NCBI GenBank assembly: GCA_965178125.1
Contig: OZ237737.1
Location: forward strand, 496,001-560,000
Direction of reading: 5' to 3'
Length of the DNA: 64,000 nucleotides
Source of the DNA: Bilabrum cf. latius
Lineage: Eukaryota
The position numbers and the translations under genes were made by a program. Shown one piece after another: positions 17,301 through 64,000 of the stretch; the first letter of the stretch is position 1, and the number at the start of each line of letters is the position of its first letter. The notes under the pieces are model-generated. The model saw nothing but the letters and a program-made list of their open reading frames with translations. It was not told the DNA's origin and searched no databases.

Positions 17301-18634
17301 CCTGCGCCAGCTCCTGGGCGGTTCTCGCCTGCCACACGTCCGAGCCAGCGCGCCAGGAGGAAGGCTCGCCGAATGCCTCCCGATCGATTCCAGCGGGTGA
17401 CATGCACGCCTTCATGACCTGCTTGACGCTCCTCCAACTAGGAAGAGACTTGATCGTATTTGCTAGGCTTCGAAGCTTATCGAGGCTGTTGCTTGGTTGG
17501 ACATGGTCGGTCCGTTCCGAAACCGCTGGCAAAACCTGCTGGCTCTCTGCAGATGTATCAGCCAGGCCGCAACGGCCTACGCTCCTACCAATATTGGTTT
17601 TGCAAGCATTTTTATCACTGTTGCGCTGCACAGCTCCGGCTGGGTGCTGCTGCCGGGCCTCCAACGAGGCTCTCTTGCGCTTTGCTCCAATTGTCCCACC
17701 CGTGGTTTGCACCGTTCGCGCTTGCAACGTTGCGCCCGTCTGCACAATCGGGCCGACAGATTTGTTCTGCTGGGATCCACCAAGCAATAACGGTGGCTGG
17801 CCAAGGGTTGATCCAACATGCATGGTTTCAGAAGCAGGCCAGTTTGACATGGCGGAGCTTCCACTCTCCAAACCCGGGCCCGTTCTTGGCGAAGCAGTTA
17901 CAGAAGTTGTTCCAAATCCTAACCGTGGGGTCGTATAGCTGGATGGGCCGAAACTTATCGGGTCAGAGCTTGTAGTGCGTTGGTGCTGCGATGAGCAACC
18001 CGAACTGAAGCCATTGACTGGCGGCGATTGGGCACCTTGCGCACCGACGATCCCAGGCGTCTGCGTCTCAGACATCGAAAAACTGACTGGCCGGGCCGCC
18101 GAGCCCGATCCGACTATCCTGAATTTCGACGGCTGCGCTAGAACGGGCTCCGATGCATCTCTGCTCCCTCCAAACGTACCACTAGGAGGAAACTGAGACA
18201 CCGCATGCAAACTGTTCTGTGAGCCGATAGTCCCTGCCTGACCGTCCACTAGTTGCTTCTCTACCGCAGAAAGGGGGACATGAGACTTTGCTAGGGTTTT
18301 AGCAAGGGAAAGACCGGCTGCATTGCCTCTGCGCCTTCCATCTGGTAAGGTAAGGCACTCCAGACCGAGACGGGAGCATCTGGCGCACGGACGCTGCGGT
18401 CCGCACTTGCGCTGCGAAATTGAGATTGCGTAGGAAAGATGCAACTATGTGTAGCATCTCGCGGAGATGTAGCCGCTGAACGGGCGTCGCTTCGGCGGTC
18501 GCGCGGAGACAGCGGAGGGCGTCCATCGGTCCTGCACGCTGACCGCAGAATCAGTGGCGGAGTCATCTCACCTTGCATGATGCACAGTATACGCATGCTC
18601 GCTGCAGTGTTCTACCTTTTTGGCCCGAGGGCAT
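14374..18634 (-). CDS. Zn(II)2Cys6 binuclear-cluster transcription factor with poly-Ser and Gln-rich C-terminal region; intron 18412-18571; 8 in-frame TAG
   Basis: Splicing restores RACVYCASCK|RKCGPQRPCARCSRLGLEC (C-x2-C-x6-C-x5-C-x2-C-x6-C). ORFs 16339-18444, 15175-16161 and 14374-14754 are one frame linked by TAG. The 3' TGA overlaps a possible GTGAGT donor, so the end is uncertain. Confidence 0.82.
16220..16306. repeat. (GAT/GAC)n trinucleotide microsatellite encoding poly-Ser in the Zn2Cys6 gene
   Basis: gatgatgatgacgatgatgacg... seen directly; reads TCA/TCG on the minus strand. Confidence 0.85.
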
Positions 18635-22239: not shown

Positions 22240-23634
22240 ATGGCAAGTGAAAGGTACGTTCGTCTGTCGCTGGAGGGTAACATATCTGCTGGAAAGTCAA
22301 CGTTCCTTGATGTTATTCGAAAACATTTGACGGACCGAGTTTTGGTTGCGTAGGAGCCGATAGAGTCCTGGCAGGTGTGCTCGACCGGAGATGGTGCGGA
22401 CACTTCGGGCCAAGTGGCAGGACCAGACGATGAGACGAATGTTTTGAAGTTATTCTATACAGATCCGTCCAGGTGGGGTTTCACGTTTCAGTCGTTTGCG
22501 TTCCTGAGCAGACTGAAGACGTAGCTAGAGTCTGCCAAGGTTCTCGAGCAAAGAGTGCGCAAGCTTGCGGACACTGAATCCGCAGGCACTCCAGGTTTGT
22601 ATGAAAAAGATCATAAGGAATCATCCAAACGAGTGGCTGCTCAAGATCCGAGAGGGTCTTCTGGAGGAGGTCCGAGAACAGCCGGTTGCTGTGACGGCGG
22701 CCCTGGCGTCAGCGATGGTCCTGCCGCTCCAAGAGCTCTCGTGTATGAGCGCAGCGTCCTTTCGGATAGATTCTGCTTTGCGTAGAATTGCAAAGAGACG
22801 GGACTGTTCAAAAAAGCAGAATGGGCCATCTACCTGCAGTGGTGGACGTGGCTCGTGCGCTCGTTCGATGGACTGCACCTCGACGGTATCGTGTACCTTC
22901 GGAGCTCGCCCGATACATGCCTCCGCCGGCTGAAGCGCCGTAGCCGGGAAGAGGAAAGCACTGTAGGCGCAGAGTATCTGGGCCAGCTCCACGACAGGCA
23001 CGAGAGCTGGCTGCTCCGGGGTTCGATCCCGGGAGAATTCATGCGACCCGTCCTTGTCCTCGACACGACGGCCGAGTTCGAAACCGACGCGGCGAGATCG
23101 GAGCACATTCTGGCACTGGTGGAGCGCTTCATGCAGCGGCTTGCGGCTACCAGGGTTCGCGAACGTTCGCTGAGCATGGACAGGCCCAAGGGCACGGAGG
23201 AGCCCGAGTCCAAATCAGGAAGCTTGGAATATGGAGCCGCGCTGGGCGGTCATAGATCGCCTGTACGAAAAGTCGGGGCTCCGGGTCTCGCCCCAGCATC
23301 GGCGTCGGGTGCGGGTGCGGGTGCGGGTGCGGACCGGAGCAGTACCGGGCACTCCAGCGGTTCATGTGCCACTACTTGTGCGGGTGCAGTGAAGGTGGAA
23401 GGGATTGCTCGCTCCGGTTCGCGCCGGATGGGAGGGGAAGATAGGGAGACATGGCTCACCAGGGTGGTGGGACCTGCAGAAGTTCCGCTATTGCGCGGCG
23501 ACATCGTCGGGGAGGTCCCTGCAGAGAGCACTAGTCTGGGAAGCTTGCTGGACGTGTCCGAGGGCTCTGGTGGGGGCGATAGCGGAGCGGCAGTTTCGGC
23601 GGCAAAGATAGCGGGTGTGACTGAACCTAGCTGA
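22240..23634 (+). CDS. Deoxynucleoside kinase (dCK/dGK/TK2 family); in-frame TAG at 22351, 22522, 22783
   Basis: P-loop LEGNISAGKST, EPIESW, FYTDPSRWGFTFQSFAFLSRLKT[TAG]LE, ERSVLSDRFCFA, DGIVYLRSSPDTCLRRLKRRSREEE, HESWL; ends TGA. Confidence 0.93.
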
Positions 23635-27563: not shown

Positions 27564-30500
27564 TTAGGTCCAATGGCCCTTCTCCAGCCCTCGCAGCGAT
27601 GCCTCAACCGCATCACAATCGATTGACCAAGCTATACTCATCGGCTTGCTTCCGCTCGATGCATCCGAGCCTTCAATTGACTTTGTGGAGGGATCCACCG
27701 GCAGGGAGATGCACCCTGCAATCAACCGCAGACAAGTTGCCAACTACTTGTCAGCAGCAGACGTGCCCAGCGTCGCAGGATACTTGCTGCCACGCATACC
27801 AGCCGGGGCATCTGAGACATCGCTCCGACGAAGCGTACCTGCTGCAGAGTTGGCGAGCCTGCTCGCCGCAGTCAGCGCCTTAAGCATTGAGCTCGGGAAT
27901 GCATCATGCGCAGCTCTTCCGGCGCCCGCTGCATTGGCCGCAGCAACCAGTGCGGTGCATGCCGCAGCCACCGAACTCAGCACAGCCTCAACAGACTGTC
28001 CAGCCGTGCTCAAAGCACCGAGCGCAGATGGTGAGCCAGCAGTCGCAGTCCCGAAGCCATCAGCCATGGCTTGGCCCGCCTTCAACGCAGTCGCAAAGCA
28101 CGCTACCATTCCAGCAAGCTGTGACCGGGCACAAGATGCGAGAGCAGGTTGGGCAGCAGCCACGGGTGCAGCGGTAGTGCATGCTTTGGCGCATTCTGCA
28201 ATTGATAGAAGCAGGACGGCAAGCTATCTGCTGCGGAACGACTGGGCGTCGCGCTTTGCAGAGCCGTTGTCGGCCGTCGTAGCCGGTGACTGCAGCACCT
28301 AGGTTGCGCTGATGGAAGCAGATGCCGCGCGACAAGCAGTTGCAGCAAAGGCACGTGCTGCCTGCGCTGCGACGATACCAGCGGTACGCTCCGTGGTCAC
28401 CTGCTGCAGCGCCAATGCGGTGCTTCGTGGCTTTTGCTTGGTCAACGTGACAGCAGCTTGAAGCAGCACAGAGACCCACCCACCTCCGAGCATGCCTTGC
28501 TAAAACCGAGCCGCGATCGCCTGGCTTTGATCCGACCACGCTGTGCCACAAGCGCCATAGACAGCCTCTGCAGCTGCCAGTGCTCGCGACGCTTGCGTAG
28601 CCCCGCTCTCCGCAAGTGCAATGACGGACGCCACCTGGTTTACTGTCTCCATAGTCATGCTGTCCACCCCACTCCCGTCTTTTCCACCTGTGGCTGCGCT
28701 GAGTCGCAGCCTGGCAAGACCCCGTGCAATGAGCGCACCGATGGCAACTTGCATGGCTCCTTGCTCCCGCCGAGCATCTTGTGCAGCGGCACGAGCTGCA
28801 CGCACCCTGGGCTCTAGCTCGCCTGCGCGGAACTTGCTACTCGACGCACCGCCCATTCGCTGCCCCCTATGCTCCTTGGATTTGGAGGACAGGGAGGCAG
28901 CTCGAGCCTCCATGCGCTACGCCGTTTCAGCGGCCAGCGCAGCTCCAGCTTCGAGCAGCTGCTTAGCCCCCGGATCCAGCAGCTCAGCGGAGGGGCCAGC
29001 GGAAGCAGGCTCGATCCCTCCGTTCGCAAGCTCGATCGAGGTACGCCGGAGCAGCGCTACGACGTTGCATCGCAGCCGGCCAACATTCACTTCGTCTCCG
29101 CCAACCTCAAAGTGCCGGCTGCCTTGCATGTAGCCTGCAACGGCTGCTGCTACTGCGGACCACCGCAGACGATGCGCGCTGTCGGTCGCTGTTGCTTCGG
29201 AAGCCGCTGCCAAGGGAAGTCTCGAACCAAGTGAGCTTCCATTTGTTTTGCCGGCCATACTCACAGCCATCTGCAAAAGAGCAACATTAAGGGACACGAG
29301 ACCCCTTTCTGCTTGCAGCAAGTGCGCGAGCAGTGATGCCCACTCGTTCATCGAGTCTCCAAGGCGACGCCTAGCGCTCTGCTCGGCCCGCCCTGCCTAC
29401 CCTTCGTAACCGTCCGCGATCTAGCTACCTCGTAGATCGCGAATACTGGCGCTATAGGCAGAGGCAGCTGCAGCCAGAGAAACTAGACCTGCGATGCTGC
29501 GTATCCCGTCCCATTTACGCTCCCCGGCGGCTCCCGCGCGTCTCATCTGCTCATCCACTTGTACGTACGACGGGACAGCAATCCATAAATCGCCCTACAG
29601 CGCAGAGAGGATCTACTAGGCAACTGGAATCGATGGCTTCGTGGACTGCAGATCGGCCCTGTACCTCTTGTCCGCCGAGGCTGATGTGCTCCGCCCGATG
29701 CTCTCAAAACTAGACGACTCAGGCCCGAGATCCGCATCCTCTTCAGTTCCGGCACCGTGCCGCAGAAGTGACAACACAAGATCTAGTCGATCCAACCGCA
29801 CAAGTTGCTGCTCTTGAGTGCCCTGCAGAGCAGGGAGGGAGGATCGAACGGCAGTGAATGCGTCCCCAATGGCGAGCCAGAGGGGGACACGTTCGTTCGG
29901 TTGCAGGCAATCCACTGCTCTAGTGGCATCCGTGATGGATTCAGATGCTTCGTCTTCGCGCAAACCAGCGGCTGCCTGTTTCCGATACCGCACTGCTACC
30001 CGCAAGGCGTCCTCCATGGCTCTGAGTGCCATCCTCGGCCTGTCTTCCTGCAGCAGAGACCCGGCCAGACCGGCACTGCATCGGATCAGCAGTCCAGACA
30101 GGCGTCGGAGAGCAATGGCGTGTATCTCTATCGTATCTGCCAAGTCTACTGCAGGTGCCGGGGACCCCTCCTCCTCGTGCACTTTAGCACCACCCTCTGC
30201 CTAGCTGGAAGGACTCCCCTCATCCTCCTCCATGCCTGGTTCACCCGAGCGCACTGCAGCCTTCTCGTGTGCATGGGTGACGAGGGCGGCCCGACACTCC
30301 AGCGCCAGCAGAACGTGTCTTGCAGCGCTGTTGAAAATGTCCGTTGCTTGCCCTATGACTTTGCCTGGGTCTGCCTCGTCTCCGCTTGACTCCTCGTCGG
30401 GCGAGCCCTGGCTAGACCCCGCCACCACCATTGCCATCGCACCAGGCGCCGAGTCATTCTATCCATCGATGCCAGCCAAAGGCTAGGGCAATTCGCTGTC

Positions 30501-33500
30501 TTGAACGGAAAGCAGTGCATCGGCAGCGTCTGTCGTGGTTGGTGCGGCTGACAAGCTCTAAGAGCGCAAGCGCCGCCCTGCCCTTCGCCTAGCCTGCGAC
30601 GCCGCCACAGAGCCACCTATCATCCCACCGCCCAGCGGTCCAATTGAAGCCCTGGATCGAATACCGCGCGCCACTGGTTTTATGCTCATCCCACTAGCTG
30701 CAAGCTGCTTGGATTTTTTGTGCCGTCTGTGGCCCTGAAGCAGCAGCTCTTCGGCAACCAGCTCGTGTACGTGAGCGCGTAAAGGCAGATGAGCCTTTGC
30801 CCACGATGGCAGTTCGCCAGTAGTGCGCCTGCGCGGTCCAGACTTATCTGAGGCGGCACTGGCGCTATCTTTGTCATGCGCATGCAGCGCCGCCCCATCC
30901 CTGGCCACATCACCAAGCAGCTCCACGCACTTAAGCAACAGCCTGCACCGCCTACGCTGCTGCCTTCGCTGCTTCTGAGCTGCCTCGCGCTAATTTCGTT
31001 CCCTAGCCCGCCTACCCCTTGCCCCCTTCTTGCCATACGCACCAAGCGGCGCTTGCGGCGCGTTCTACGTGTCGGTCACCGTGCTGCGGCCAATTTCCTG
31101 CGCCACACGGTAGCACAGCATAGCCATCATGTACCGCCACCTGCGACGGCGAGCAATGCCTTGTAGGTCAATCCCAGAGCCGCTCCCTCCATGCTCCTGT
31201 GCCCTCAAGTCGCTACCATCTGTATCCTACGTTGAAGCACCTGCTTGGGTGCCGGCGCTGACGCTTGAGTCGCCAGTGGTTGTCTTGGCCTGTTCCGAGG
31301 CAGGATGAACGCGTGTGCCAGCAGATGGACCAGCCTGGGGCCCTCCTGTCTTTCTCGTATCAGAGGCTTCACTGCCTGTGTAGACTGACTTTGCTCCAGT
31401 AGAATCTACGCTGCTGTCTTGCTGCTTGGCTTGCGTGTTCATATCGTAGAGCTCAACAAGCGACTGACCGGCCCTCTTCACCAACCAGTACGATGAGCAG
31501 TCCTTGGTGCAGTTGTGGCGCAGGAATTGCAGCAGCGCAGCACCACCCTGCTCTACAGCACTCGCAGAGAATGGCGCGTCATCACCGGACAACAAAGGAA
31601 TTTCTGAAGTGCTTACCAGCTAGTATCCTTGGATCCTCCCGCCGTCGTGGTAGCAGACCACGAGCTCAGGCACGTCAGTGAAGAGGTTATCCAGATACAG
31701 GTCCAGGCACTCCTCCTGGCTGAGACCCTTCCCAATCTCTGCCAGGGTCACAGCCACGGGATTTGGATGAGCTTGGTTGCGAAACACGAGCAGGTCGCTG
31801 CCTAGGACTAGCTTCAGCCCCGCAAACTGCCAGTGTGCCATGAACCTGTATCCGCTCGACGTAGGGTCTGCCGGCTGCACGTCGGCATGGGAGGATGAAG
31901 ACGAGCGGCGGTTCCTTGCGCGACCGGTTGCCACGGCACCTGAGCCGGTGGTATTAGCGCCTGCCTGCATCATCTTTCCAGACGCGGCAACCGGTGTGAC
32001 TGTAGCTGTAGTCGCAATGTGGGTTGAGCGAGCCTGGCTCTAGGCGCTCGTTCCTAACTGAGACTTAGTTTCTCTCCCGTACGGCGCTATAACACCAGAC
32101 TGGACCTATACATGCGCGGCGCTACGGCTTGCTGCTCTACCCCCGCTGCGTCTCTTCGCGTCGCTACTGTGAGCAACGGCAACGATACCCTCAGCCTGTT
32201 CTTCTTCCTCCTCTTCAACTTCTTCTTCGTCTACCCCCTCCAATTTGTCAAGACTTTGGGCTGTGCCATGCAGTCGCGCACCCGCATGGTCAAACTCGTC
32301 TCCTCCCACCACGTAGGCCGGGGAGACCATCTCCACCTTGCCATCCTTGATCATAACCCAGCGCAGGTCGTCAGAGGCTTCCGGCGTATCCGATTTGACT
32401 GCACCGCCCGACTGCACCGACGATGACGTCGCAACGATATGATCATTGGCAGTAGATCCTGGAGCATAGTCTTGCTTGGTCAAGCGCCCAGTCCTGGCTC
32501 GCGCTCGCCGGTTCTCTCTCGCCTTCTAGGACACCAGCAGGGGGGCAGGCTGTTCGTGCTGTAGCTCGGGCGACGGAGCAATCATGCTGAATGCTGGGGC
32601 GTTTCGAGAGCCCGGGCTTGCTGCTCCGCTTGCACCGCTCCCAGAAGAGCCCGCGCTTTGCGATCGGCCGGGCGGCAAGCTGAGCAGAGCCGTGCGGTCG
32701 GCTCCCCTGAGCACCTGCTGCATGTCTGGAGGGTCCAGCTGCAGCACTCTCGATGCCAGGCCTGCGCTATCAGAATGCACCTCCCTATCTGAGTAAAGGG
32801 ATGGATCCTGGGCGGCCGCGTGATCGGGCTCGGCCAACTGGCCCGGTCTTTTGGATTCTGCCAAGGCAGATTTCGGTCTATCGGCAATGAGATGAGGCTG
32901 GTCGCCTGGCGATTCAAGCATCGGTAGCTGGCTGATCGCTCCCCCTGAGGACATGTTCACGAAGGCAGAGTACAAGGTGCGACTGGACTGGCTGAGAGTG
33001 GCCCTCGTGCGCGCATCACGCCTGCCAGCATCAGAATTGGGCATGATCCGCGGGTCGCTGCGACGCCTCTATTCAAGTCCGCCGGCTGAGTCGATGGCTA
33101 GCGGTGCCTCAGGCTGTGGATCGGCTTGCACCGGCTTGCTTCCCCTGCGCTACTCTTCTTGTATGCTTCCAGAGGAAACCACCATGCCGGCATCGCCTGC
33201 TTGGACCGCTGGTAGCACGGCGATGCCGGTGCCAGCAACTTGCGCTGGCGAGCCACGCTTGCCGCGTGGCTCCGCTCTGTCTGTGCCTGGCTCGGCATCG
33301 AAAGTGCTGCTTGCTGAGGAGCTTTCGATTGGAATGCTCGGATCACCATCCAGGACGATGGTGCGACCAACTCGGTGCACTGCCATCGATACCGGCCTGT
33401 CAGACACTGGCATTGCGAAGAGGCTTCGGAGGGCTGACGCGGGGGCAACCACATCAGCGCTGCCTACGTGCGCTACTAGCTGATCAGAACGCTCCATTGG

Positions 33501-34001
33501 GCCAGAGAGGCGCTGGCGAATTGATTTAGCTTGCTTTGCAATGACAAGCTCAGCTCCAGCCCCACTTAAATCTGGCCTGTACCCGACTTGCTCCGCTTCC
33601 AACGCTGACAGAACTGCCTTCGCAGCACCCCAAGGAACCACAGCTTCCTCCCTCAGGGTTTCTTGTTGGAACTATAAGCCTACACCACCACTCTCTGACA
33701 GCAATCCGCCCATTGCAAGCAGCCCTCTTTGCGTTCCGAACATGTCGGGATCCAGACCAATCTTGCTGCTGTCCACAGCAGGACTTGTGACCAGCCTCGT
33801 CGGCTCAGCAGAGGGCGCACCTTTCGATATTGTCGCGACCTCAAGCTATGTTTGGGCCGGCAAATGATGATATTGTAGAGCGGGAGCAGCCTGTATTTGG
33901 ACCTGCTGGAATAAGTCCGGATCGATTCCATCTTGCGTCCCCACCAGAGAGGCTAGGTCCAGCCTAGCCGATGGTGTATGCTCTTCATTTAATAAATTCA
34001 T
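27564..34001 (-). CDS. EDRF1: EDRF1 (erythroid differentiation-related factor 1)-like protein, ~2145 aa, apparently intronless, about 25 in-frame TAG
   Basis: DVVAPASALRSLFAMPVSDRPVSMAVHRVGRTIVLD; LVLGSDLLVF; YLDNLFTDVPELVVCYHDGGRIQGY; LQFLRHNCTKDCSSYWLVK. About eleven listed ORF pieces lie in one frame; I translated the larger gaps and found no TAA or TGA. Ends TAA. Confidence 0.85.
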
Positions 34002-34165
34002 GATGCCTGAAGCCCAACTAGCAAAGTTAACGTCATGGAGTCCGGGTGGATGTGATGCTTGTGCATTATATCTGATTTTGCCGCCGGCGTGCTAGTTGCG
34101 AGCACATTTCCACGTGTCCGCCAAAGGCAACTTCAAGCCTGGGCCCACATTTACAGTATCCTGAT

Positions 34166-35611
34166 ATGCCCAAGTAGCGTGGAAACAGAAAGAAAAAGAC
34201 AGGGAAACCCGATTCAGAGGCTGGCGATGCCAGCAATCCGGGAAACGCGCCTGAGTAGGTAGATGAGAAGAAGCTAAAAATGCAAGCGGAGCAGGAGGCT
34301 GCGTAGAAGCGCGTGAAGCTGCTGCTGGAGAACTATGGGAGCATGAAGAAGGCTGATAGTGATCGGGAGGCATTTTTGCTGAAAGTTGTAGAGTCTATCC
34401 GTTCTCATTCTACGGGGTTCGGCCCGGCCCTCGCTCTCGGCGAGCGAACGAAGTACTTTGGGCCAGAGCACATTTATGGCGCGATCATGTCGTCTGGGCT
34501 CGTGGATCCGAACTGGTCTGGCGAGGGAAAGGGAGAGTTGAGCCGGGAGGACGTCGCAGATTCTATTTTCATCGAGTTGCTGCGGACCATAAACTCGAAG
34601 CTGTCACCGAGAGATTTTGGCCCGCAGCGACCCAAGCAGCTAGGCGCGCGCCCATTCCTGTAGCGATTGGAGATCGCCAAGCGAGTGAAGACCGGCGCAG
34701 ATGGTCAGCCGGTCCTTAGCAAGAAAACAGGGAAACCGAAAAAGGAGGTGGTGCACGCCCCGGGCAACCTGGTCGTGCTGCAGCCGCCGCAGGACGGGTC
34801 TGACGTGTTCAAGGTCGATGATCTAGCGCGCTTTATCATCAACTACGAAGAAGATGCGTTTTGGCAGACGCTTAAGCTCGGCGCGATGGCTGTGGCTGTA
34901 TTCATTCTGCTGCTATATAGGGTGTGGCCGATGTGGATGAGGACGGGCATTTGGTACGTGTCTGTCACGTTCCTAATCGTGTTTTTCGGTTTCGTGGTCC
35001 TAAGGCACTCCCTATTCGTGGTTCTATGGGTGTTTGGCGTGGAGCTCTGGCTAATTCCTGGATTCTGGGAAGATATTTACTGGCCTCTTTACAGCCTCGA
35101 GTTCGCGCCTGGCAGGGACGTGGTGCTGAGGCTGATCATGGCGGTTGCGCTCGTGTTTGGTGGATATATGGCGTACAACTCCGACATCACGTTCGACCAC
35201 GTGCTCGAGTCGCAGCAGGAGATGGTGAGTTCTCTGTACGAAGGAAAGTTCCTCACGCAGGGAGCAGCCGAGGACCCGTTCGCTCGCACCATTCCCAGCA
35301 TCGCTGACCTCGAGAAGCAGCTGGAGGAGGAGGAGAAAGAGGAGGATGGGGGCGAAGAGGCGGCCGGCAGCGCATCGGGTGCTGCAGGGGAGTCTCCCGA
35401 TGCTGAAGGCGAGTGGGGAGGGGAGCAGGAAGGAGTGAGCCAGCCTGGGTCTGGTGGCACCAACACTGCTGACGTGGGTCCCGGCGGTGATGTGGATACC
35501 TCTCAGACTGGCGGCGACAATGACGATGACGAGGACGCTGCTCTGATGGAGGAGATGCGGAGGGTGGCCGAGGAAGAGGCAAGCGGGGAGGAGCAGCGGT
35601 ACGAGGACTGA
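34166..35611 (+). CDS. SEC62: Translocation protein Sec62; in-frame TAG at 34175, 34256, 34304, 34661
   Basis: Basic N-terminus; INYEE followed by TMs LLLYRVWPMWMRTGIWYVS...VLRHSLFVVLW...LWLIPGFWED..PLYS; acidic tail; ends TGA TGA. Confidence 0.85.
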
Positions 35612-45400: not shown

Positions 45401-46736
45401 GGCCGCTGAGGAGGAGCAGCAAGAGGCAGCCAGGCGCAAGGCCGCTGAGGAGGAGCAGCAAGAGGCAGCCAGGCGCAAGGCCGCTGAGGAGCAGCAGCAA
45501 GAGGCAGCCAGGCGCAAGGCCGCTGAGGAGGAGCAGCAAGAGGCAGCCAGGCGCAAGGCCGCTGAGGAGCAGCAGCAAGAGGCAGCCAGGCGCAAGGCCG
45601 CTGAGGAGCAGCAGCAAGAGGCAGCCAGGCGCAAGGCCGCTGAGGAGGAGCAGCAAGAGGCAGCCAGGCGCAAGGCCGCTGAGGAGGAGCAGCAAGAGGC
45701 AGCCAGGCGCAAGGCCGCTGAGGAGGAGCAGCAAGAGGCAGCCAGGCGCAAGGCCGCTGAGGAGGAGCAGCAAGAGGCAGCCAGGCGCAAGGCTGCTGAG
45801 GAGGAGCAGCAAGAGGCAGCCAGGCGCAAGGCTGCTGAGGAGGAGCAGCAAGAGGCAGCCAGGCGCAAGGCCGCTGAGGAGCAGCAGCAAGAGGCAGCCA
45901 GGCGCAAGGCCGCTGAGGAAGAGCAGCAAGAGGCAGCCAGGCGCAAGGCCGCTGAGGAGGAGCAGCAAGAGGCAGCCAGGCGCAAGGCCGCTGAGGAGGA
46001 GCAGCAAGAGGCAGCCAGGCGCAAGGCTGCTGAGGAGGAGCAGCAAGAGGCAGCCAGGCGCAAGGCCGCTGAGGAGCAGCAGCAAGAGGCAGCCAGGCGC
46101 AAGGCCGCTGAGGAGGAGCAGCAAGAGGCAGCCAGGCGCAAGGCCGCTGAGGAGGAGCAGCAAGAGGCAGCCAGGCGCAAGGCCGCTGAGGAGCAGCAGC
46201 AAGAGGCAGCCAGGCGCAAGGCCGCTGAGGAGGAGCAGCAAGAGGCAGCCAGGCGCAAGGCCGCTGAGGAGCAGCAGCAAGAGGCAGCCAGGCGCAAGGC
46301 CGCTGAGGAGCAGCAGCAAGAGGCAGCCAGGCGCAAGGCCGCTGAGGAGGAGCAGCAAGAGGCAGCCAGGCGCAAGGCCGCTGAGGAGGAGCAGCAAGAG
46401 GCAGCCAGGCGCAAGGCCGCTGAGGAGGAGCAGCAAGAGGCAGCCAGGCGCAAGGCCGCTGAGGAAGAGCAGCAAGAGGCAGCCAGGCGCAAGGCCGCTG
46501 AGGAGGAGCAGCAAGAGGCAGCCAGGCGCAAGGCCGCTGAGGAGGAGGAAGATGGCGATGACGTCCTAGGCTCTGGGGCTGCAGCCGCAGCGTTAGACGC
46601 CTAGAGGATGCGATCCACCAAGGACAGTTCCAAGAGCCGTCCGCGACGCCGTGCGCCAGCCGCACATGGTCGGGACTGGTCTCAGTCGTCCAATGGTGGG
46701 GGGAGCAGCCCTGGTGGATTCTGTACTATCTCGTGA
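36478..46736 (+). CDS. Giant ankyrin-repeat protein, copy A (~3190 aa): two internal modules, long charged helical repeat, C-terminal CaaX (CTIS); introns 36829-36939, 38371-38468, 39651-39762, 41245-41392, 42635-42762, 44014-44108
   Basis: Ankyrin motifs GRSLVHTAIAAG, DKDGDTPMQLALKAG, GETPLHAAVRAGRVQAVAELLRRGA. Six phase-0 GT-AG introns join all pieces in frame once about 18 TAGs are read through. Ends GGFCTIS-TGA. Confidence 0.78.
45231..46550 (+). repeat. 39-bp coding minisatellite, ~34 copies (EAARRKAAEEEQQ)
   Basis: gaggcagccaggcgcaaggccgctgaggaggagcagcaa in tandem; one unit is 36 bp. Confidence 0.95.
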
Positions 46737-53300: not shown

Positions 53301-56300
53301 TGCAATCCACAGCAAGATAAGGACCCGGTTTATGCACAACTAGCCGACACGGCTCTTCTGGTCGCTCTAGTTAGTACATCACCCCCTTAGGAAAGCGCTA
53401 CCAGTGCCCTTGAAGCAGTTGCGCAGGGATAGGCCAGCAGCCCAGGTCTAAGTGAGGCACAGAATAATGTTATCAGCTGGGCGAAGCGTCTCTGCATGCG
53501 GGATAGTGTAAGATAGGATTAGCCTCGGAGTTCAGGCACAGCGCTATGCGTTGCTGTTTGGACGGGGTGCCGCGCATTACTTTACCTTGTGCGAGTGTGT
53601 GTACGTATGCTGCATTTTATCTGTCCCGCAGGATGGCTGCTCCGCTTTGGGTTACGTTGTAGGCGAGGCAGGTGGTCAAGGTAATGCGAATTCAGCTATC
53701 GACTTGCTTGTAGCGTTGGGTTGCTGCGTATCAAGCACGCAGGTATACCATCGCGGTGAAACGTTCAGCGCAATCGAGGCCGTAACAGCCTCGCATGAAA
53801 CACGCAGTTGCTACCCAACTCGTGCTAGTTTTGTGCAGACAGCCCGAGAGAGCCTTGAAGCGAACAGTGATCCACTTGCCAGTGGGTCAAGTGCTGCTGG
53901 TGCTGCGGGAGATGCCAGCCCGATGAATTTAGCCTCTGTAGAGAAGCCCACGTGGCTCAACTTCTGTACTAGCTTGGCAGTAGATAATGTTGTTCACCGT
54001 GCCATCGCCGTGGCCGCTGGCTGGCACCGCTACCCAGACGGTGAACCAGAGGCGAGGTCCGCTGAAGTTACGAAGATGGCCGCCAGGGCCTTCGAAGAGA
54101 GTGAGGCTCCAACAGCTGTTCGATTAAAGGTAGCTCAAGCTGCCTGGCTGCTGGGAAGCTTGATGCCGGACCAGATCCACTTCAGTGTGTCCAAGGATTG
54201 TAACTCGCTGCTGTGGAGTGCCAAAGGGCCGGATGATGGAGCTGCTGGCAGCTCCGGCGCCCTCGAAGTTGACAAAGAATGCCTGCACGCCCTACCTGAG
54301 GTGGTACAAACGCTGTGCGGTGGTCGGCCTGCCCTACCACAGGCAGACTAGGCTACTGACCCAAAGCAGCGTCCTTGCACTTTGCTGCGAAGTGAAATTG
54401 CTGAAAATCTACTGGCTCCGATCCGAAACGGTGAGATGTAGGCGAACGAAGACGACCACTATCAAATGTAGGCCCTAAAGTATCTGTGTTCCATGAAGCT
54501 GTTGTCGACACACGTTGAGCGTCCTGTCGGAGTGGTCGAGAATATTACGAAAACAGTTGACTCTTCAGCCGGACGCGAATTACGTTCGCAAGTTGGCAAG
54601 ATGTTAGCAGCCGGAGAGACTCTACTTCACGATGCATGGGTACGTGTGAAGGCACCTACCGTTGACCACGCAGCGGTGAGCGCCGGTGCCCGTGCCGCTG
54701 CAAGTGGTTCTGCATCTAACCCAGATGCTGAAATTGCCGTTCCCCCAGTCTGCGCCCTCATGCTTCAAAGCGGTGCTGATGGCTCAGAATTCCCTGACCT
54801 CGCTAGCATTGTACTTTTGTTGTACGGCGCAAGCCCGGTCTAGGGGTCCGAGGTAAGTCGAGTTTCGCACTCATGTTAACATTTATTTCTCTACTTTGCA
54901 GAGCTTACACTAAATGCACAATATTATTTCACATATTTCGCAGGATAGCACTTGTACGCCCCTCTCTGTGCTCGTGCAGTAGATTCGCGCTGGATCTATA
55001 GATCGAAGAATGCGTACGGAGCCGCATCTCCGCAGTTCACTCCTTGCGGCACTTGCTGATGCGGCTTGGACCCAGGGCCAGAAGGACCCTGCCGTGTGGA
55101 CTGCGTGGACACAGGCCGTGATGCAGCAGCTGAAGCTGTGCACGTAGCACACCAAGGGCGACGAGCTGGTAGTTGAGCTGCTGCTGGACTACTCTGGCAT
55201 CCTGGAGGGTCCGCTGATGCTGCTGCATCAGGCTGGCAGCGGGATCCAGGATGAGCCAGCCAGCGGGGCAGGTGCCAGCGCTGGTGCTGGAGGTGGTGTA
55301 GCTGCTGATGTGGAGGCCCTTGTTGCATCCAGCGCTATGCTGCTTCAGGATGTGTTTGTGTGGGCATGCTCGAGCAAGAGCGTGTCGGGGCAGGTGCTGA
55401 GCAGCTTGCTGGAGCGCGGGTGCAGCCCCACAGCGCCGGGCAGCAGTGGAGAGACCCCTCTGCGTGCAGCCGTGCGGGCTGGTCGGCTTGCGGCCGTGAT
55501 CGAGTTGCTGAAGCGCGGCGTGAAGCTCAGTAGGCTGCACGTAGCAAGTTATATTGCAGCCGATGGCAGGCTTCCCAAAGTTGCCGATGTTTTGGAAAGG
55601 GTGACCCTTGAGGAGGAGACCACTGCAGAAGCGCAGCTATCAGCAATTAGGGCTGAGCTCGAGGCCGAGATAGATGCTGAGACACCCAAGCTAGGGGTAA
55701 TTGACGAATACGACTGGCCTGCAGCGTGGAATGCAGGGCGCGCGGACTTTGTGACTGTTTTGTCCATGGCCGACATGAAAACGTGGCGAGACAAGGCAGT
55801 CAAGAGCCTCTAGGAGTCTGGCGAGCTTGCTGAGAAGCAGTTCCAGGATTCAGGCGAGTGGAAACTGCTCTGTGTGAGGCGAGGCGTTTTGCTTCGCGCC
55901 GCATCGAATGTGTGGGGGCAGCCCGAGCTGTGGAAGACAGATGGTGCGGATGCGTCTTCCCTGATCCATGCTATCGAGCATGCGACTGGAAGCATACAGG
56001 CACATCTTGGGCATCTAGCTGAAAGTGCAGCGGCGTCAGAGGCGAAGGCTGTAGAGGAGGAGGCAGAGGCAGCCAGGCGCAAGGCCGCTGAGGAGGAGGC
56101 AGAGGCAGCCAGGCGCAAGGCCGCTGAGGAGGAGGCAGAGGCAGCCAGGCGCAAGGCCGCTGAGGAGGAGGCAGAGGCAGCCAGGCGCAAGGCCGCTGAG
56201 GAGGAGGCAGAGGCAGCCAGGCGCAAGGCCGCTGAGGAGGAGGCAGAGGCAGCCAGGCGCAAGGCCGCTGATGAGGAGGAAGATGGCGATGACGTCCTAG

Positions 56301-56467
56301 GCTCTGGGGCTGTGGCCGTAGCGTCAGACGCCTAGAGGATGCGATACACCAAGGATAGTTCCAAGAGCCGTCCACGACCCCGTGGGCCAGCCGCACATGG
56401 TCGGGACTAGTCTCAGTCGTCCAATGGTGGGGGGAGCAGCTCTGGTGGATTCTGTACTATCTCGTGA
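47314..56467 (+). CDS. Giant ankyrin-repeat protein, copy B (~2800 aa), tandem paralog of copy A; introns 47665-47775, 49207-49304, 50487-50598, 52081-52229, 53508-53631, 54853-54943
   Basis: Same exon structure and the same CTIS-TGA end. The 5' half is nearly identical to copy A at an offset of 10836 bp. Confidence 0.78.
56066..56281 (+). repeat. 36-bp coding minisatellite, 6 copies (EAARRKAAEEEA)
   Basis: gaggcagccaggcgcaaggccgctgaggaggaggca in tandem. Confidence 0.95.
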
Positions 56468-56663
56468 GACGGGTGATCCCACTGGGCCACGGTCCTTTAT
56501 CACGTGTGCTAGAATTTGATTAAAGATTTAATAGATAGTCCATTTGTTGGTTGACACAAATTGACAGTCTTGGTTGTGGCCAACTTGTTGAACTTGAGGG
56601 AACCTTCGAGAAGTCCGACCCAGTTTCCGTTCGTCACTGGCAGTCCACTGGTGCACCACAGAC

Positions 56664-57641
56664 ATGCAAAGTGCAGCCTCTTACAAGAAATCACGGGAGG
56701 ATGAGTTGGATGAAATCGTAGGCTCCTGGTTGCAGTCATTCGCGTTGGAAAGGCAAAGGCTAGAGCGAAGCTAGTGCATCACTTCGGCGGTAGTCGCGCA
56801 ATGCAGACGCCTGTTATCGCTACTAAGCTAGCAAATGCTTGTTGCACAAGCATCAAAATCATTGCACGATGCCGACGCCATGACAATCAAAACTCTGAAA
56901 AATGCGCTCAAGTAGAAAGAGCAGCACCTGCAAGTTGCAAGGCAACGTGAGCTGGTCGCACAGCGTCTTGTGGCTCGACTACAAAGAAAGCTGGCGGAAG
57001 TTGACACTGAAACAGTAAAGGTGGACTCTCTTGCATCTTAGCTTGTGGTAGAGGAACGCCGATCGCTTTCTCGGAGGAGGCAGGCATCTTCTTCACCACC
57101 AGCCGGCGGCCTCGCCGGAAGCGGGATCGCCTATGCGAACAAATCTGCTTCGAACATTCGGAAATCATCGCCAACCACATCATCATGGCGAGCTACAGTG
57201 ACCGGAAGGCGTGGCTCGGAGACGACTGGGGGCATCATGCTCCGGGAAGCCGAGACGCAGCGCAAGCGAGCCCTGGATGGAATCGGCATTGGAGGGGCCC
57301 CGTCTCCACTCATGCAGGCAGGATCCAGGCACGCTCGGCGAGAACACCATTCGAGAGATCATGAAGCTGCACTTATTGACCCGCACGGCTTGCCTTCATC
57401 AGCAGCGTCCGGTGAGCATCGGCCCGGCACCGGTGATCACGCAAGCCGCCCAGCTGCTAGTAGAGCAGGGTACACCCGCCCGAGCAGCGCTGCAGTGCCC
57501 CCTCACGTACGCACCCGTGGTGGGGGAACCTCTGGACGAAGCTTTGCTGGCCCTCTAGCCATGGCCCTCGCAGAAAGCAAGGCCGCCGCAGAGGCGGAGG
57601 CAGGTGCCGTAAGCGGCGCTTCTAGGGGTGGGACGCATTGA
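56664..57641 (+). CDS. Hypothetical coiled-coil protein; 4 in-frame TAG
   Basis: ORF 57045-57641 extends upstream through TAG only, giving MQSAASYKKSREDELDEIV...LKNALK[TAG]KEQHLQVARQRELVAQRLVARLQRKLAEVD; ends TGA. Confidence 0.6.
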
Positions 57642-58012
57642 CTCAATGGGATCACAGTGAGGTTCCTTGCGTACGATATGTAGCTTTTTTCAGATTTGAA
57701 CACGCCGAGCAGGCACCGTTACAAAAATTGCAATGCATCCGGATGTATTGGCTGCTCCTCATATTGGATATGCATCAAGTTTCTGTGTGTTTGTCTTCAC
57801 CAACACTGACGCACTCCTGTGGCATCAGGGCGAGGCGAGACTCGCGCCGCATACTACCCTTCTTCTCATCGTTTCCTTAGATTCCACCCTGCAAAACACA
57901 GCTGCTGTACCCCTCAATGACAACTCCCCACATCTCTTGCACGCCCCCACACGCATGCTCCTTGCCCTATCCACCCCTGAGAGATGAACAAGAGATCCCA
58001 ATATCGATCAGC

Positions 58013-60682
58013 TCACAACACCTCAAGCCCTCTGCCCCCGTCAGGGCACAGCTCCGAGACGGTCACGCCTGCCAGCCCCCTTGATCCGCAGATCACGTCA
58101 AGCGCGCGGTCCACAGAGGCCACCACGTCGTGGTCGTAGCTCGGCCTCTCGAACCCAGGCACGTGCGAGAGGCTGAAGACGAGGTCGGCGGGCAGCTGGG
58201 CGTGCAGCTTGACGATGCCGCCGCGAAGGTCGCCCTGGTGCGAGAGGCGCTCACGCACGCGAGCGGGCCCTTTGGTGTCGTGGTCCCAGGGGCAGTGCGA
58301 CCACAGGCACACGGACATACCTGCGGCGTTCGCGGCGCGCAGGACTGACACGTTGCGGGTGCCGCTCTGCGGCCTGAACCAACGCACAGTGGTCTGGCGG
58401 AACGGCTCGGGTACTAGCTCCAGACGGAAGTGCAGCGTGCTGTAGAGCAGAGCGGCGAGGCTGACGTCCACGTCGTCATCGTCGCTGTCATCCCCATCCT
58501 CGTCCTCTTCGTCCTCCTTCTTGCCGCCTGACCCGCGTGCCCTGCTGCCTGCTCTGCGCCTCGCCTTGGGCTTCTCCTCCTCCTCCTCGGCCTGCTGCTC
58601 CATCGCCTCCATCTCCATCTCCGCCGCGTCCATATCCTCAAACTCGCCGGGGATAGTCTGAAGGGCCCTCTCTAGAGTCTCCTTGGCCTCTCGCATGGCG
58701 CCCTCGGTGTCCAGGCGGCCAGACGACGTGCCAGAGGGGCCCAGAAGCCCGATCTCGTGGCCAGCAGCAGCCACCAGCCTCACCAGCTGCGGCACCGCGC
58801 GGGCATCTCCCGCGGACACGAAGAAGGTGGCCCGGGCGCCCTTGTCCGCGAGCGTGGAGAGCACCTGGGCGAGCGTGGCCTCGTCGATCCCCTCGATGGT
58901 CAGGGCGGCGCAGTCGGTGTGCACGGAGCCGTGGGTGCTCACCTCGGCGAACATGGGCGCCAGCATGCGGTGTACACGGTTGGCACTGTGGCGGAGCGCC
59001 GAGGCGGCGCCGAAGATCAGAGTGGCGAGCACCGCTGCCACCAGGGGCTCGTCCACGGAGGCGCCCTTGTTGGCGAGCATGCGGGCAGGGGAGTACAGCG
59101 CGATGAGGGCGCCAACCTGCGCCTTGCCCGGTACGAGGTTCCACAGGGGCTGCAGGAAGGACAGGCCGTAGGTGATCCACTCCACGGCCTGGGTGACGTA
59201 AGGTCCCACGGCGTCGGTGACTGGCTTGAGTGCCGAGTAGTCGGCAGGGGGGTTCTCCTTGAGCTGCTGCTGCCCGAACACGATGGCGAAATAGCACACC
59301 GCGATCATTACCACCAGAATCGTAAAGTCCGCCGTGCCCATGCGCACGCTGGACGACATGCGGATGGTGGAAGTCTCGATGAAGCGCACGAAGGCGAGAC
59401 ACACCGACATGGCGGCGGCGTATCCGACGGCGAACGCGAACAGACGGGTGTGCATCGAGCCGTCGCCGCCAGTGGTCTGCGCCGCGTGCACGGCCACCAG
59501 CCCAAACGACAGGGTCACGAGCACAGCCGAGTTCCGCTGGAGCGGGGAGAAGGGCCCGTACACCGCGGGTTTGGTGCGGAGGAAGGGCCAGTGGCTCGCC
59601 AAGTCAACTGCGAGAACTGCCGTGGCGGCAAGGGCGAGAGCTACGGATCCGGAGCCGGAACTTCCGAAGAGGGTGGCGCCCTCTGCGCCCGTGATCCACT
59701 GGAACGCGTCGGTAGGGCCCGGCAGGACGGCGATGGTCTCGGTCACGACCGACAGGCCGACCGCCCCGGCCAGCACGTACCACCACACGGGGATGTTCCC
59801 GGTCTCAGGGTACCTGGGGGGCCCTGCGACCAGTAGCGCGATGGGCAGGGACATGGCCAGCGCCACGATCTGCGGGGATAGCTCGATCCCGGCGTATGCG
59901 TAGGCGAAGAGGAGGCTCCCTCCGATGACGCCGAGCACGGCGAACTGAGGCGTGAACGTCTCGGCGAGCCCTGCGAGATAGGCGGCGGCATAAGGTTGAT
60001 ATGGATGATCGTGCAACCAAATACTGAAAGCTTCTGGCGTGCGAGATGGGAACTGGCTGAGGTAATTGCAGTGACACGCAAGTGATCTCCGCCAAGCACA
60101 CCGCTGACTAGCTCGCTCACACTTGACAGACACGCCATAGGCTGCGGCGAAAAAGGCAAGAATCACCGGGATAATCCTAAGGCTTGACGCCTCGAAGCCC
60201 TTGCCACCGATCACGTCAGGCTGTGTCGCAACGAGGACGATTCCAACTGCCACCGCCACCACGGTCGCAGAATACCGATGCCAAATCAGGGAGGCGCACA
60301 AAGTGCCAGCTCCAATCACGGCAGACAGAAGAAGCTCTTTGTTGATCTTGCTGGCAGAGACGTGCATGGCCACGTACACGAGGACACCCACAGTTGCCAC
60401 AACCGAGGTGAGGAAACACAGCGGAAGCATGATCGAAGTCAACTTCCTGCTGCCAGTCACGCCAGCAAATGCCACAAATGCGGCGCTGATGCTCTGCGTT
60501 GGAGACAGGAGGCCCTTGGGAGATACGAAGACATTCGATCGTGTTGCGTGAGATTCGAAGTGCAACTGCAACGAGACGCGAAGATCCCTGAGGCAGCACG
60601 TGCAGATGAGCCCAAGCTAGTCAGAACTTACAAAAAGAAAGAGTATTCCAGCATAACTCGTCTCATCTAAAGTAAAATTCAT
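58013..60682 (-). CDS. Multi-pass membrane protein with C-terminal NodB/polysaccharide deacetylase (CE4)-like domain, probably inactive; intron about 60494-60631, possible second in-frame intron near 60030-60120
   Basis: Many hydrophobic helices, then AALTIEGI, ARATFFVS, AAGHEIGLLG, RWFRPQSG, GGIVKLH. First exon MNFTLDETSYAGILFLF|GTAAGT. Ends TGA. Confidence 0.75.
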
Positions 60683-60921
60683 CCTCGCGTGCAGCAGGGA
60701 CTGAGTGCGTGGGCCAACGGCAGCGTCGATCTGGTTTAGACCGAAGGTAGCGTGCTGTTAAATCCAAGCGTGCGCGCGCACCCAAAGGGCAGATGAGCGT
60801 GGGCCCCCAGACCCTAGAAGTGGCTGGTCACCAGCCTCGCAAAGCAGTGCTTCAGCATATCACTTTGAGACTAATGCAAATATATGCATGCCAACCTCAA
60901 AAAAGCCAGCACTGCGCCTGT

Positions 60922-62658
60922 TCACAGCGACAGCACCGCCATGGACGTCGTGACGGATCCAACACCGTCTTCTTCGTCGCTTGAGGGCAGGTCCTCGCCG
61001 ACCCCATCCTTCACCTCGATCCCAGCCTGCCTTTTCCTCTCTCGCTCTGCCGCCGCTCGTTTCCTCAGCTCGGCTTTCCTTTCTTTGTTGCTTAGACCCT
61101 CCAGGCTGGCATCCCCCCCAGCCTCCATCGCTTTTCTCTTCTTCCTGGCCGCCTTCATCAAACGCTTCGCCTCCTTGCGCCTACGCTTCTCTTCCTTCTT
61201 CTGCTAGGCAAGCGCAGCCGCAGATACCAAAGAGGCTGCCTTGCCAGACCCAGCAGCTGCATCCCCATCAGCAGCAGCAGCAGCAGCAGCAGCATCATCA
61301 CCAGGGCTTGAGATGGACCCACACGCCGCACCTGCCCGCGCTGTTCCGGTGGAGCTGCCAGCGCCAACAGGCGGCGGACACCCACCGGAAGGCAACATCG
61401 GGGGAACATTTCCCGACGTTGCAACCGCGTCTTCCTCCAGGGCTCCACCGAGGCCCAGGCCGCCCTCTCCCCAGCCGTCCGTGAGCAACGAGCCGCCGCC
61501 TGCACCGCTTGCACCCGCAGAGGCTGGGACTGTCTCGAATTCGCCTGCCCCCGCTTTGGAAAGTGCAGGCTTCGCTGCTGCAGCACCACCCACCGCTGCT
61601 GCTTCGCCATCGCCAGCCCCGTGGACTCCTTCCATGTCCCCCCAGGCTTCTCGCTTGCTCTCCTGCTGCGCGATCAGGATCTCCAGAGCGGCGTCAACGT
61701 CACCCTCCACGGATGCCAGCGTTGATCTGACGTCCCCCAGCGTCATTCCAACGGTGCTGCGGAGCAGAAGCTCCTCCTCACTCGTCACACCTCCATTGGC
61801 GCCGCCCATCGCTGCCCCCTTGTCCCTGCCCCAGTCCGCCCCGGCACCTCCCCCCATGTCCAGTCGGTCCCCTGCACCAGCACCAGCACCAGCACCAGCA
61901 CCAGCACCAGCACCAGCACCAGCACCAGCACCAGCACCAGCACCAGCAATGAGCCTCTTTGCCTCCGGCGCGCCTTCCCAAACCGCGCCTTTAGCCGTCA
62001 TGACGAATGGAGTGGCGGGGGCTTTCGCGTCGTCCCCTAGCATCCTGATGGAATCGTAGTGCTCTCCGTTGCGATACACGAGGTTGATCGTCTTCTTGTA
62101 ACCCGGCGACTTGAACTCCCACCGGGGCTGGTCCAGCTGGTGCACCACGATGTTCATCTTGAGGTGATCATGAATTGCCATGATTTCTAGCTGCCCCACC
62201 CATTCGCCTTGCTTGGCGATGTTGGCCGTGTACTCCTCAAAAGTACCGTCCTCCTCCTCGCTTATGAAAAACTGGTACCCATCCTTGTTTGCCTGCAGGC
62301 GCGCCACGCAAGCAGCACGAAGCTCGACGTGATGGGCTTCAGTCCCATGCAACTAGTCTGACACGGCTCGAAACATGCAATTCCCATCTGCAGCAACTTC
62401 TCGCACTTGCAAGTTGGCCTTCCGAAGCTCTACAGCCAGCTTTCTGCTATCCGCTGCCCACTTCGCCTTGTCCTACCTAGCCCTTTCTCGCTGCATTCTG
62501 CGCCTATCTCTCTTCTCCTGTTTCTTTTCTTGGGCACGCTTCTGGTGCTGCAATCGACGTTCCTCCTTGCGGGTCTTTGCCTTGCCTGCACCCGATCCGC
62601 CTGCCGCAGACTTAGCACTTGTCCCCTTTCCTGTCTTCTTTCCCTTCTTCTTCGGCAT
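60922..62658 (-). CDS. OTU-domain deubiquitinase (OTUD3-like) with UBA/CUE-like domain; in-frame TAG at 62473, 62353, 61204
   Basis: VREVAADGNCMFRAVSD[TAG]LHG, GEWVGQLEIMA, NLVYRNGEHYDSIR; UBA-like VRSTLASVEGDVDAALEILIA; basic termini; ends TGA. Confidence 0.92.
61874..61948. repeat. (GCACCA)n hexanucleotide repeat encoding (Gly-Ala)n in the OTU gene
   Basis: About 12 tandem copies seen directly. Confidence 0.9.
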
Positions 62659-62799
62659 TAAACAACGACAATTATTTCAGAGGGAGGAAATCTGGGCTTT
62701 GCTCCATCGTTCTTGCTCGTGGCATAGAACGTTCGTTTAGAGTAGCGAACCTCGGCTGAAATCCATCGCCACGAGTCGGGAATCGCCATTTCCTTCGCA

Positions 62800-64000
62800 A
62801 TGCCTAGGGTATACATTCACATTTAGGCTGGAAACAATGATCATGTCATAGCTGTTCCTAATGTTCGCGACACTGACACGTGCGAGTCGTTGGCAAAGGT
62901 GAGAGACTGATCGTTGTATGATGAGCCACGTGGGCTGTAAACATCGAGATTATGGAAGATGTCCGCTACAAACGAGTGTAATTACTACCTTTTGCAGGCA
63001 TTCGTGGAGTCTCCCGGGTTTCGCCGCCGATTCAAAGCAATTCGCCCAGCCGCAATTCGATTTCGAGTGTGCGGCAAGCCAGAAGGGGGCCTGCTCCCCC
63101 AAGTAGCTTCAGTAGGAAACGCGCTGCGGTCAGACTTAACTCCAGCGACTCCTGGCTACGCAGACGCTGTTGCTGTGATCGTGAAGTTGCCAGAGTCTGC
63201 AGGTGAGCCGGAATCTTAGGTAGCCGAAGCCGCCAGAGTGGCTGTCAAGCACGAGGGCGCTGGGAAGCGCGAACGTCCTGCTGCTAGGCACGTTGGTGCA
63301 TCTAGTGGAGCCGGCTCCGACGATATCCTAGCGGATACCAAGTCCGTCGGAGGCAGCGAGGCCGAGGACGAGCCCGCGGCAGCGGACTGGAGGAGCGCCT
63401 GCCTGCAGGCAGAGCTTGGCCTTCGAGGGGGGGTCTACAGGCAGGCCATCCAGGCCATCAAGCAGGCGGTGGAAGCATACCCGGGAGGTGCAGCAGGGGC
63501 CCCAACGGAGGCTAGGGTGGCTCTTCTCCGGTGCAGAGCGTGGGTGCAGATGAAGGTGGGGAGACCCGCGAGGGCAGTGAAGCTGCTGCGCCAAGCAGTA
63601 TCGCTGTCTAAGAAAGACCCGTCGCTTGCGTGCGAATTCGGAGAGAGCCTGCTGTAGACTGGAGACAGCAAGGCCGCAGTGTCTGCATTTGACGGCGCCG
63701 CGGTGGAGCTCCGCAAGATGGAGACTAGGCTGGCTGCTAGCCCCTCGGCAGCTGCCGCGGCCCAGGGCAAGTCAACGGCTCTAATCGGCGCCCACGCTGC
63801 GTACAAGCTGGCCATGGGCAAGGGAGGCCGCTTTACCCTGTGCAACGGCCCCGGGGGGCTGTGCACCACGCCCTTCCCGGGCGTATACTGCAGCACGGAC
63901 GCTTTACTCGGTTGTGCGAGAGCTCTGTGGAAAGGCGGCAACTTGGCGGGCGGGGTCCAGGTCATCAACGCGATCGTGGAGACGGGTGCAGGTGACGAGC
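62800..64000 (+). CDS. TPR-like protein, 3'-truncated; intron 62899-62997; in-frame TAG at 62824, 63217, 63655
   Basis: Phase-0 GTGAGA...TTTTGCAG intron; helical TPR-like segments YRQAIQAIKQAVEAYP, RAVKLLRQAVSLSKKDP, FGESLL[TAG]TGDSKAAVSAF; frame open to the window end. Confidence 0.65.

Follow-up and report, generated by a model that had tools for sequence, protein, structure and literature searches.

What does a TAG codon stand for when it falls on a conserved glutamine in the middle of an enzyme domain? The locus analysed here raises this question in an open reading frame for a predicted OTUD3-like deubiquitinase (Table 1). A sequence-only reading of the DNA had pointed to the in-frame string DGNCMFRAVSD-TAG-LHG, leaving the strand unstated; the string is present and lies on the minus strand, the CTA of the plus strand at 62353-62355 giving TAG. 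The frame opens with an ATG at 62658, closes with a TGA at 60922 and contains three in-frame TAGs. Based on our findings, we propose, with a probability of about 0.94, that the nuclear code of this organism, a Cafeteria-related bicosoecid, would read UAG as Gln and keep UAA and UGA as its sole stops, as in NCBI table 15. The window is the whole 64,000-nucleotide stretch of DNA that was analysed (C3:496001-560000), and the genome tested is the assembly to which it belongs (G000; 48.6 Mb, 111 contigs).

Table 1. Features of the window discussed in the text; residues and codons are numbered along the OTU reading frame.
Feature	Position	Strand	Remark
OTUD3-like deubiquitinase ORF (predicted)	60922..62658	-	intronless; 578 aa if TAG is Gln; closes at TGA
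In-frame TAG, codon 102 of the OTU ORF, read as Gln	62353..62355	-	Gln in 145/150 homologs
Cys94, DGNC motif of the OTU ORF	62377..62379	-	C in 150/150 homologs
His200, GEHYDS of the OTU ORF	62059..62061	-	H in 150/150 homologs
In-frame TAG, codon 62 of the OTU ORF, N-terminal basic region	62473..62475	-	unconserved column, uninformative about the residue
In-frame TAG, codon 485 of the OTU ORF	61204..61206	-	C-terminal family motif 93 codons downstream
TAG in deoxynucleoside kinase gene, Gln of the SR..Q motif of dCK/dGK	22522..22524	+	by alignment
EDRF1-like ORF	27564..34373	-	2,269 aa; 26 in-frame TAGs; frame closes at TAA
Sec62-like ORF	34166..35611	+	4 in-frame TAGs; ends in TGA

The predicted protein belongs to the OTU family by its match to PF02338 (residues 90-201, E 5.6e-19, 69.3 bits against a cut-off of 23.3) and by its Asp, Cys and His motifs, whose catalytic columns are each invariant (150/150 homologs). 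Its best match in the PDB is OTUD3 (4bou, E 1.3e-24), and like human OTUD3 it would have the OTU domain, the D-C-H triad motifs and Gln at the TAG column; unlike that protein, it carries long low-complexity insertions, and its deubiquitinase activity is a prediction. We take Cys94 and His200 to be the catalytic residues, from what is established for OTU proteases. The 150 homologs come from a profile-library search, a first homolog search (E<=1e-10) having returned none; the query of that set carried Q at the TAG column and the alignment carried X. At this column the homologs have Q in 145, V in 2 and C, H and S in 1 each, so that the column is 97% Gln, in agreement with the earlier claim of a conserved glutamine. 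The structures compared have Gln in OTUD3 (4bou) and OTUD5 (3pfy, 3tmo), and Thr in OTUD1 and the one viral OTU shown. The TAG had been described as next to the catalytic Cys; it lies eight residues past it and is not adjacent. It does stand between Cys and His, as had been said, and the frame continues past it to GEHYDS. Since His200 is encoded downstream of the TAG, the predicted active site requires readthrough. The C-terminus, directly before the TGA, has the form [LIVM]x[LIVM], which is common to 109/150 homologs against a background of 3.5%, and this family motif indicates readthrough of the third TAG as well. As predicted from these features, the OTU gene is intact and ordinary, and its TAG is one ordinary Gln codon.

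The TAG is not an assembly error, for contigs of 4/4 runs from three studies span 62353-62355 without an alternative letter, a gap or a joint. Nor does it appear to be removed by a small intron or altered by RNA editing, an explanation that we consider scarcely credible. In-frame GT..AG pairs that span the TAG do exist (45 candidates up to 200 nt, the shortest of 12 nt), but the removal of such an intron would delete columns that are filled in 150/150 homologs. Contigs of runs X6-X8 are without three neighbouring GT-AG introns (59969-60120, 60493-60632 and 62896-62996), which X5 keeps, and are therefore likely to be at least partly mRNA-derived, with the proviso that the RNA nature of these runs is a tool's guess and that an intronless OTU gene cannot prove its own contigs to be mRNA. 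The contigs of X6-X8, like that of X5, retain the TAG unedited, and those with the neighbouring introns spliced out cross the site with no joint. Sequence nearly identical to positions 56000-64000 of the window was found in runs under four different organism labels, as is expected of a bacterivore in the cultures of others, and such DNA may thus contaminate other data sets.

A further alternative is that the genome uses the standard code and that the OTU gene has decayed to a pseudogene or exists here as a null allele. Because a CAG>TAG nonsense mutation, a C>T change, gives the identical one-site pattern, a genome-wide test was made, and since the OTU site alone is weak, the assignment of UAG to Gln was decided by the dynein, Rab and eRF1 genes and by gene ends. 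The earlier statement that this codon is the best single-site evidence for UAG=Gln thus holds for the assignment, which is supported genome-wide, but not for the weight given to a lone site. HMM domain matches were made with stops read through and counted. The 28 matches to dynein AAA_6 contained 20 TAG, 0 TAA and 0 TGA, and the 36 matches to Ras contained 34 TAG, 0 TAA and 1 TGA, the latter at a match edge; pooled, the 64 matches hold 54 TAG, 1 TGA and 0 TAA, whereas gene decay should also yield TAA and TGA. TAGs are carried as well by eRF1, by Prp8 and by all 19 dynein stretches. The three TAGs of the OTU gene are what a decayed gene might show, but its catalytic residues and C-terminal motif are intact, and we regard the nonsense mutation as extremely improbable.

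The dynein genes provide the largest sample. The 19 stretches are single frames of 2,254-3,333 codons interrupted only by TAG, and their 60,400 codons include 273 TAG, 2,196 CAG and 375 CAA; the lack of TAA and TGA inside these frames is by construction, the independent counts being those of the AAA_6 and Ras matches. In an alignment of 120 homologs, drawn from the neighbourhood of one query so that its columns are not independent, 163 TAGs were aligned. Among columns conserved to at least 90%, Gln is the conserved residue at 28/41 TAG, 324/466 CAG and 34/52 CAA codons, so that the Gln share at TAG equals that at CAG and CAA (p 1.0). The summed log-odds for dynein TAG are +78 bits for Q, with E next at -217, L at -460 and Y at -617, and TAG is the only codon in the alignment whose top residue departs from the standard code. 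Outside the dyneins, the Gln of the DTAG[Q] motif of Ras is encoded by TAG in 8/30 loci, and Q44 of eRF1 is a TAG at a column that is Q in 116/117 homologs. That UAG means Leu, Tyr or pyrrolysine is hardly conceivable in the light of these data. One column of eRF1, L69, would by itself give TAG=Leu, but among dynein columns conserved to at least 90%, none of the 2,053 with Leu and none of the 537 with Tyr has a TAG, and pyrrolysine would not be expected to be widespread and placed at Gln columns, as UAG is here.

It is unlikely, if less remote than the foregoing, that UAG is ambiguous, being mostly Gln and partly Glu, or that, as in context-dependent codes, it doubles as a stop close to mRNA 3' ends. 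At Glu-conserved dynein columns TAG exceeds CAG (E/Q 7/28 against 20/324, stratified OR 3.8, p 0.011), and at codon 29 of one dynein (L058) it stands on a column that is Glu in 110/110 homologs. Moreover, the genome's tRNA with a CUA anticodon matches tRNA-Glu(CUC) in 7/8 D-stem bases and differs from it by one base in the anticodon loop. Against this, TAG does not exceed CAA at the Glu columns (CAA E/Q 5/34, p 0.7), its Gln share is that of CAG and CAA, and TAG is found at 0/35 defined gene ends. We infer that the Glu excess reflects GAG>TAG changes, which take one substitution, all TAG codons being presumably young. Apart from this, TAG makes up between 0.7% and 27% of the Gln codons in individual dynein genes (L057-L075), a share that is lower where GC3 is higher (rho -0.86). 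The code could therefore escape notice in relatives that are very rich in GC.

The 35 defined gene ends, a small sample, comprise 27 TGA, 8 TAA and 0 TAG. A Cys prenylation motif closes the protein at 20 of the 30 Ras loci, and the stop after it is TGA at 16 of them and TAA at 4; the 10 loci without a C-terminal Cys motif were left out of the tally. Twelve dynein termini give TGA 9 and TAA 3, with one stretch whose frame end is not the dynein terminus (L070) and six that run off their locus excluded. Prp8 and the OTU gene end in TGA, and eRF1 ends in TAA. Because UAA still terminates, the assignment corresponds to table 15 and not to table 6. The code of table 6, in which UAA and UAG are both Gln, was considered and rejected: no TAA occurs in the 64 domain matches, where in-frame UAA at Gln positions would be expected.

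Elsewhere in the window, the deoxynucleoside kinase gene has two TAGs in addition to the one on its conserved Gln, and these align to unconserved P/T and S/K positions. At 14374-18075 on the minus strand, Q is replaced by TAG inside Gln/Ala-rich tracts, which is consistent with Gln. Between 36478 and 56467 on the plus strand, ankyrin-containing ORFs are tandemly duplicated at a spacing of about 10.8 kb (36478/47314 and 39682/50518), and a long EEEQQEAARRKAA-type repeat lies near 45200-46600 within the same region.

The source organism can be placed as a Cafeteria-related bicosoecid, a stramenopile, from one gene tree and the best named hit. Cafeteria roenbergensis is the closest named dynein homolog at 66% identity, against 52-54% for other named stramenopiles, and the dynein tree joins our sequence, with a support of 1.0, to a sister clade made up of Cafeteria and two environmental sequences (FastTree LG+gamma; a single gene, query-anchored alignment of 2,996 columns, 40/120 homologs). 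An 18S rRNA array lies on contig C12. A second 18S rRNA, on a contig of 17.9 kb (G000:C95:6099-7900, L001), is only 77-83% identical to that array; its signatures look dinoflagellate-like to us, and it probably comes from a co-cultured organism. The mitochondrial contig (G000:C111, L037-L040) is 38,401 bp long with 24% GC, reads open under table 4 and encodes a tRNA with a UCA anticodon; ARAGORN finds just 10 tRNAs on it, an unusually small set if real. Cafeteria and Cafileria are likewise reported to have mitochondrial UGA=Trp (PMC6972860, PMC6723347).

For the decoding of UAG as Gln, a candidate tRNA is present. A tRNA gene with a CUA anticodon (tRNA-CUA; G000:C23:907607-907679, 69.8 bits) folds into a full cloverleaf, and BLASTN of the genome gave no second copy. 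A pattern for a CUA anticodon and T loop had 12 hits in the genome, 1 of them a tRNA; this pattern misses any CUA tRNA that has an intron, a long variable arm or U32. A Gln-like CUA pattern matched nothing in the genome and a looser one matched only the known gene; the 64-kb window itself contains no tRNA gene. The RF00005 search scored 63/780 candidates, so the tRNA set is partial, and the comparison sample is without nuclear His, Leu and several other isoacceptors. The genome also has tRNA-Gln(CUG) in two copies and tRNA-Gln(UUG), neither of which tRNA-CUA closely resembles. Compared with tRNA-Tyr(GUA), it shares 12/14 bases of the acceptor stem and 8/10 of the anticodon stem, each difference being a compensated pair, together with C1-G72 and a 5-base variable loop. 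Over these two stems, a grouping chosen post hoc, it matches Tyr at 20/24 positions and Gln(CUG) at 12/24, with a maximum of 16/24 among 224 pairs of different amino acids; over 53 fixed positions it matches Tyr at 37, Gln(CUG) at 31 and Gln(UUG) at 29, and 37 is reached by 6/224 background pairs. It agrees with tRNA-Gln(UUG) in the D stem (8/8) and in G73.

These comparisons suggest that tRNA-CUA would be a Tyr-derived amber suppressor switched to Gln. A body derived from tRNA-Gln is not supported, as the agreement with Gln(UUG) is confined to the D stem and G73; tRNA-Trp(CCA) and tRNA-Asp(GUC) were rejected as parents, with 10/24 and 3/24 stem matches. The Tyr-like body might favour UAG as Tyr, and ARAGORN, going by the anticodon, labels the gene tRNA-Pyl. 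However, tRNA-CUA has G73 and C34 against the A73 and G34 of the eukaryotic Tyr set, which further includes C1-G72 and U35 (PMC9976931), and its variable loop is short, contrary to the Leu, Tyr and pyrrolysine readings. G73 is among the Gln elements reported for bacteria, together with G2-C71, G10, U35 and A37, and several non-Gln amber suppressors are reported to insert Gln (PMC9976931). Returning to Gln, we would put slightly better than even odds on the following history: in this stramenopile, UAG alone passed to Gln through a tRNA-Tyr that became an amber suppressor (G34C), then changed identity (A73G and a Gln-type D arm) and came to be charged by GlnRS. In the present cell, tRNA-CUA would be charged with Gln by the canonical GlnRS, whose gene is intact and whose sequence, by eye, differs in no obvious way from the human and bacterial enzymes, and it would read UAG but not UAA, as C34 cannot pair with A. 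At loci L124, L025 and L134, tRNA-Met(CAU) and tRNA-Pro(UGG) also have 12/14 acceptor bases in common, which qualifies the acceptor-stem likeness to Tyr, and the two isoacceptors of tRNA-Gln agree at just 27/53 fixed positions; this lineage may often recruit tRNAs.

The release factor could contribute. In eRF1, G29A, N30D, S60V and K130H (human numbering) are each found in 0 of 109-117 aligned homologs, in an alignment that leaves out three fused hits (P0002-P0004), while GTS, NIKS, E55 and S70 are intact. The gene (L034:1068-2900, G000:C35) has two in-frame TAGs in domain 1, one of them the last codon before an intron. Since these UAGs lie in eRF1's own gene, residual termination at UAG would lower the output of eRF1 itself. 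The second TAG is at L69, where the column is Leu in 116/117 homologs; the eRF1 structure 8ip8, which we take to be from a plant, has Gln at position 69, and L69Q is therefore not diagnostic either way. We infer that the changes in domain 1 have a role in ignoring UAG: together with L69Q, the four substitutions may weaken its recognition. A metagenome scan returned 80 eRF1 loci, none above 73% identity, and therefore no close relative by which to date the code change; among the sequences compared, no bicosoecid sister eRF1 is closer than 76%.

Our analysis thus goes beyond the sequence-only reading in that UAA is still a stop, the host is a stramenopile, and a cognate tRNA is present that looks Tyr-derived. 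Among known codes, UAA and UAG hardly ever differ in meaning, and for Gln the rare nuclear cases in which they do are reported without an identified tRNA (PMC5304391, PMC11687900). Since code, tRNA, GlnRS and eRF1 are here found together in one genome, with Cafeteria as a cultured relative for comparison, the uncoupling of UAG from UAA becomes directly testable. If the proposed origin is true, a eukaryotic code would here have changed through a natural switch of a suppressor from Tyr to Gln identity, in contrast to the origin from tRNA-Gln predicted or seen in the literature consulted, and a Tyr-bodied tRNA that delivers Gln would bear on the rules of eukaryotic Gln identity, for which the table of an identity review is blank (PMC9976931). 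In practice, annotation under the standard code breaks up the genes of this organism.

A code of this kind is already known, and it is apparently new for stramenopiles. We found no nuclear UAG code of a bicosoecid or other stramenopile in the literature, where coverage of subscription journals and supplements is thin; nor is one mentioned in the available portions of a stramenopile review from 2024 or of a preprint on the Halocafeteria genome from 2026. If true, this would be the first nuclear code variant found in stramenopiles, within the literature searched. The nearest named relatives, Cafeteria roenbergensis and C. burkhardae, likewise have intron-poor genes and mitochondrial UGA=Trp; their genomes are 34-36 Mb with about 70% GC, against 48.6 Mb and about 60% GC (window) here, and the available text names a non-standard code for the mitochondrion only (PMC6972860).

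UAG alone is reported as Gln in Iotanema spirale, Hartmannula sinica, Trochilia petrani and Protocruzia tuzeti, and as Leu or Ser in a rhizarian, three ciliate MAGs and Scotinosphaera (PMC11687900, PMC5304391, PMC9161772). I. spirale (Fornicata) is like the present organism in its nuclear UAG=Gln, its UAA stop and its uncoupling of the two codons, but it belongs to an unrelated supergroup, its eRF1 has T32G where GTS is intact here, and for its tRNA(CUA), reported as unseen, an origin from tRNA-Gln(CUG) was predicted, whereas here the gene is found and is nearer to tRNA-Tyr (PMC5304391, PMC9161772). H. sinica, T. petrani and P. tuzeti also reassign only UAG to Gln, as inferred from conserved columns, but they are ciliates; in the phyllopharyngeans H. 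sinica and T. petrani a suppressor tRNA is reported as undetected (PMC11687900). The rhizarian exLh and the three TARA ciliate MAGs (UAG=Leu) and Scotinosphaera (UAG=Ser) likewise change UAG alone, but to a different amino acid; the eRF1 of exLh is also changed at position 69 (L69A), and the ciliate UAG=Leu suppressors derive from tRNAs for the same amino acid, Leu, unlike tRNA-CUA (PMC5304391, PMC11687900). The UAR=Gln codes of Tetrahymena and hexamitins have in common with ours UAG=Gln through a tRNA(CUA), but there UAA is Gln too (PMC5304391), whereas here UAA is the stop codon of eRF1, of 3 dyneins and of 4 small GTPases and is absent from the domain matches. The same assignment as proposed here, with TAG as Gln and TAA and TGA as stops, is that of crAss-like phages (NCBI table 15), in which it is a phage trait shown by proteomics (PMC9523058); in the present bicosoecid it would belong to a eukaryotic nucleus, as read from its genes.
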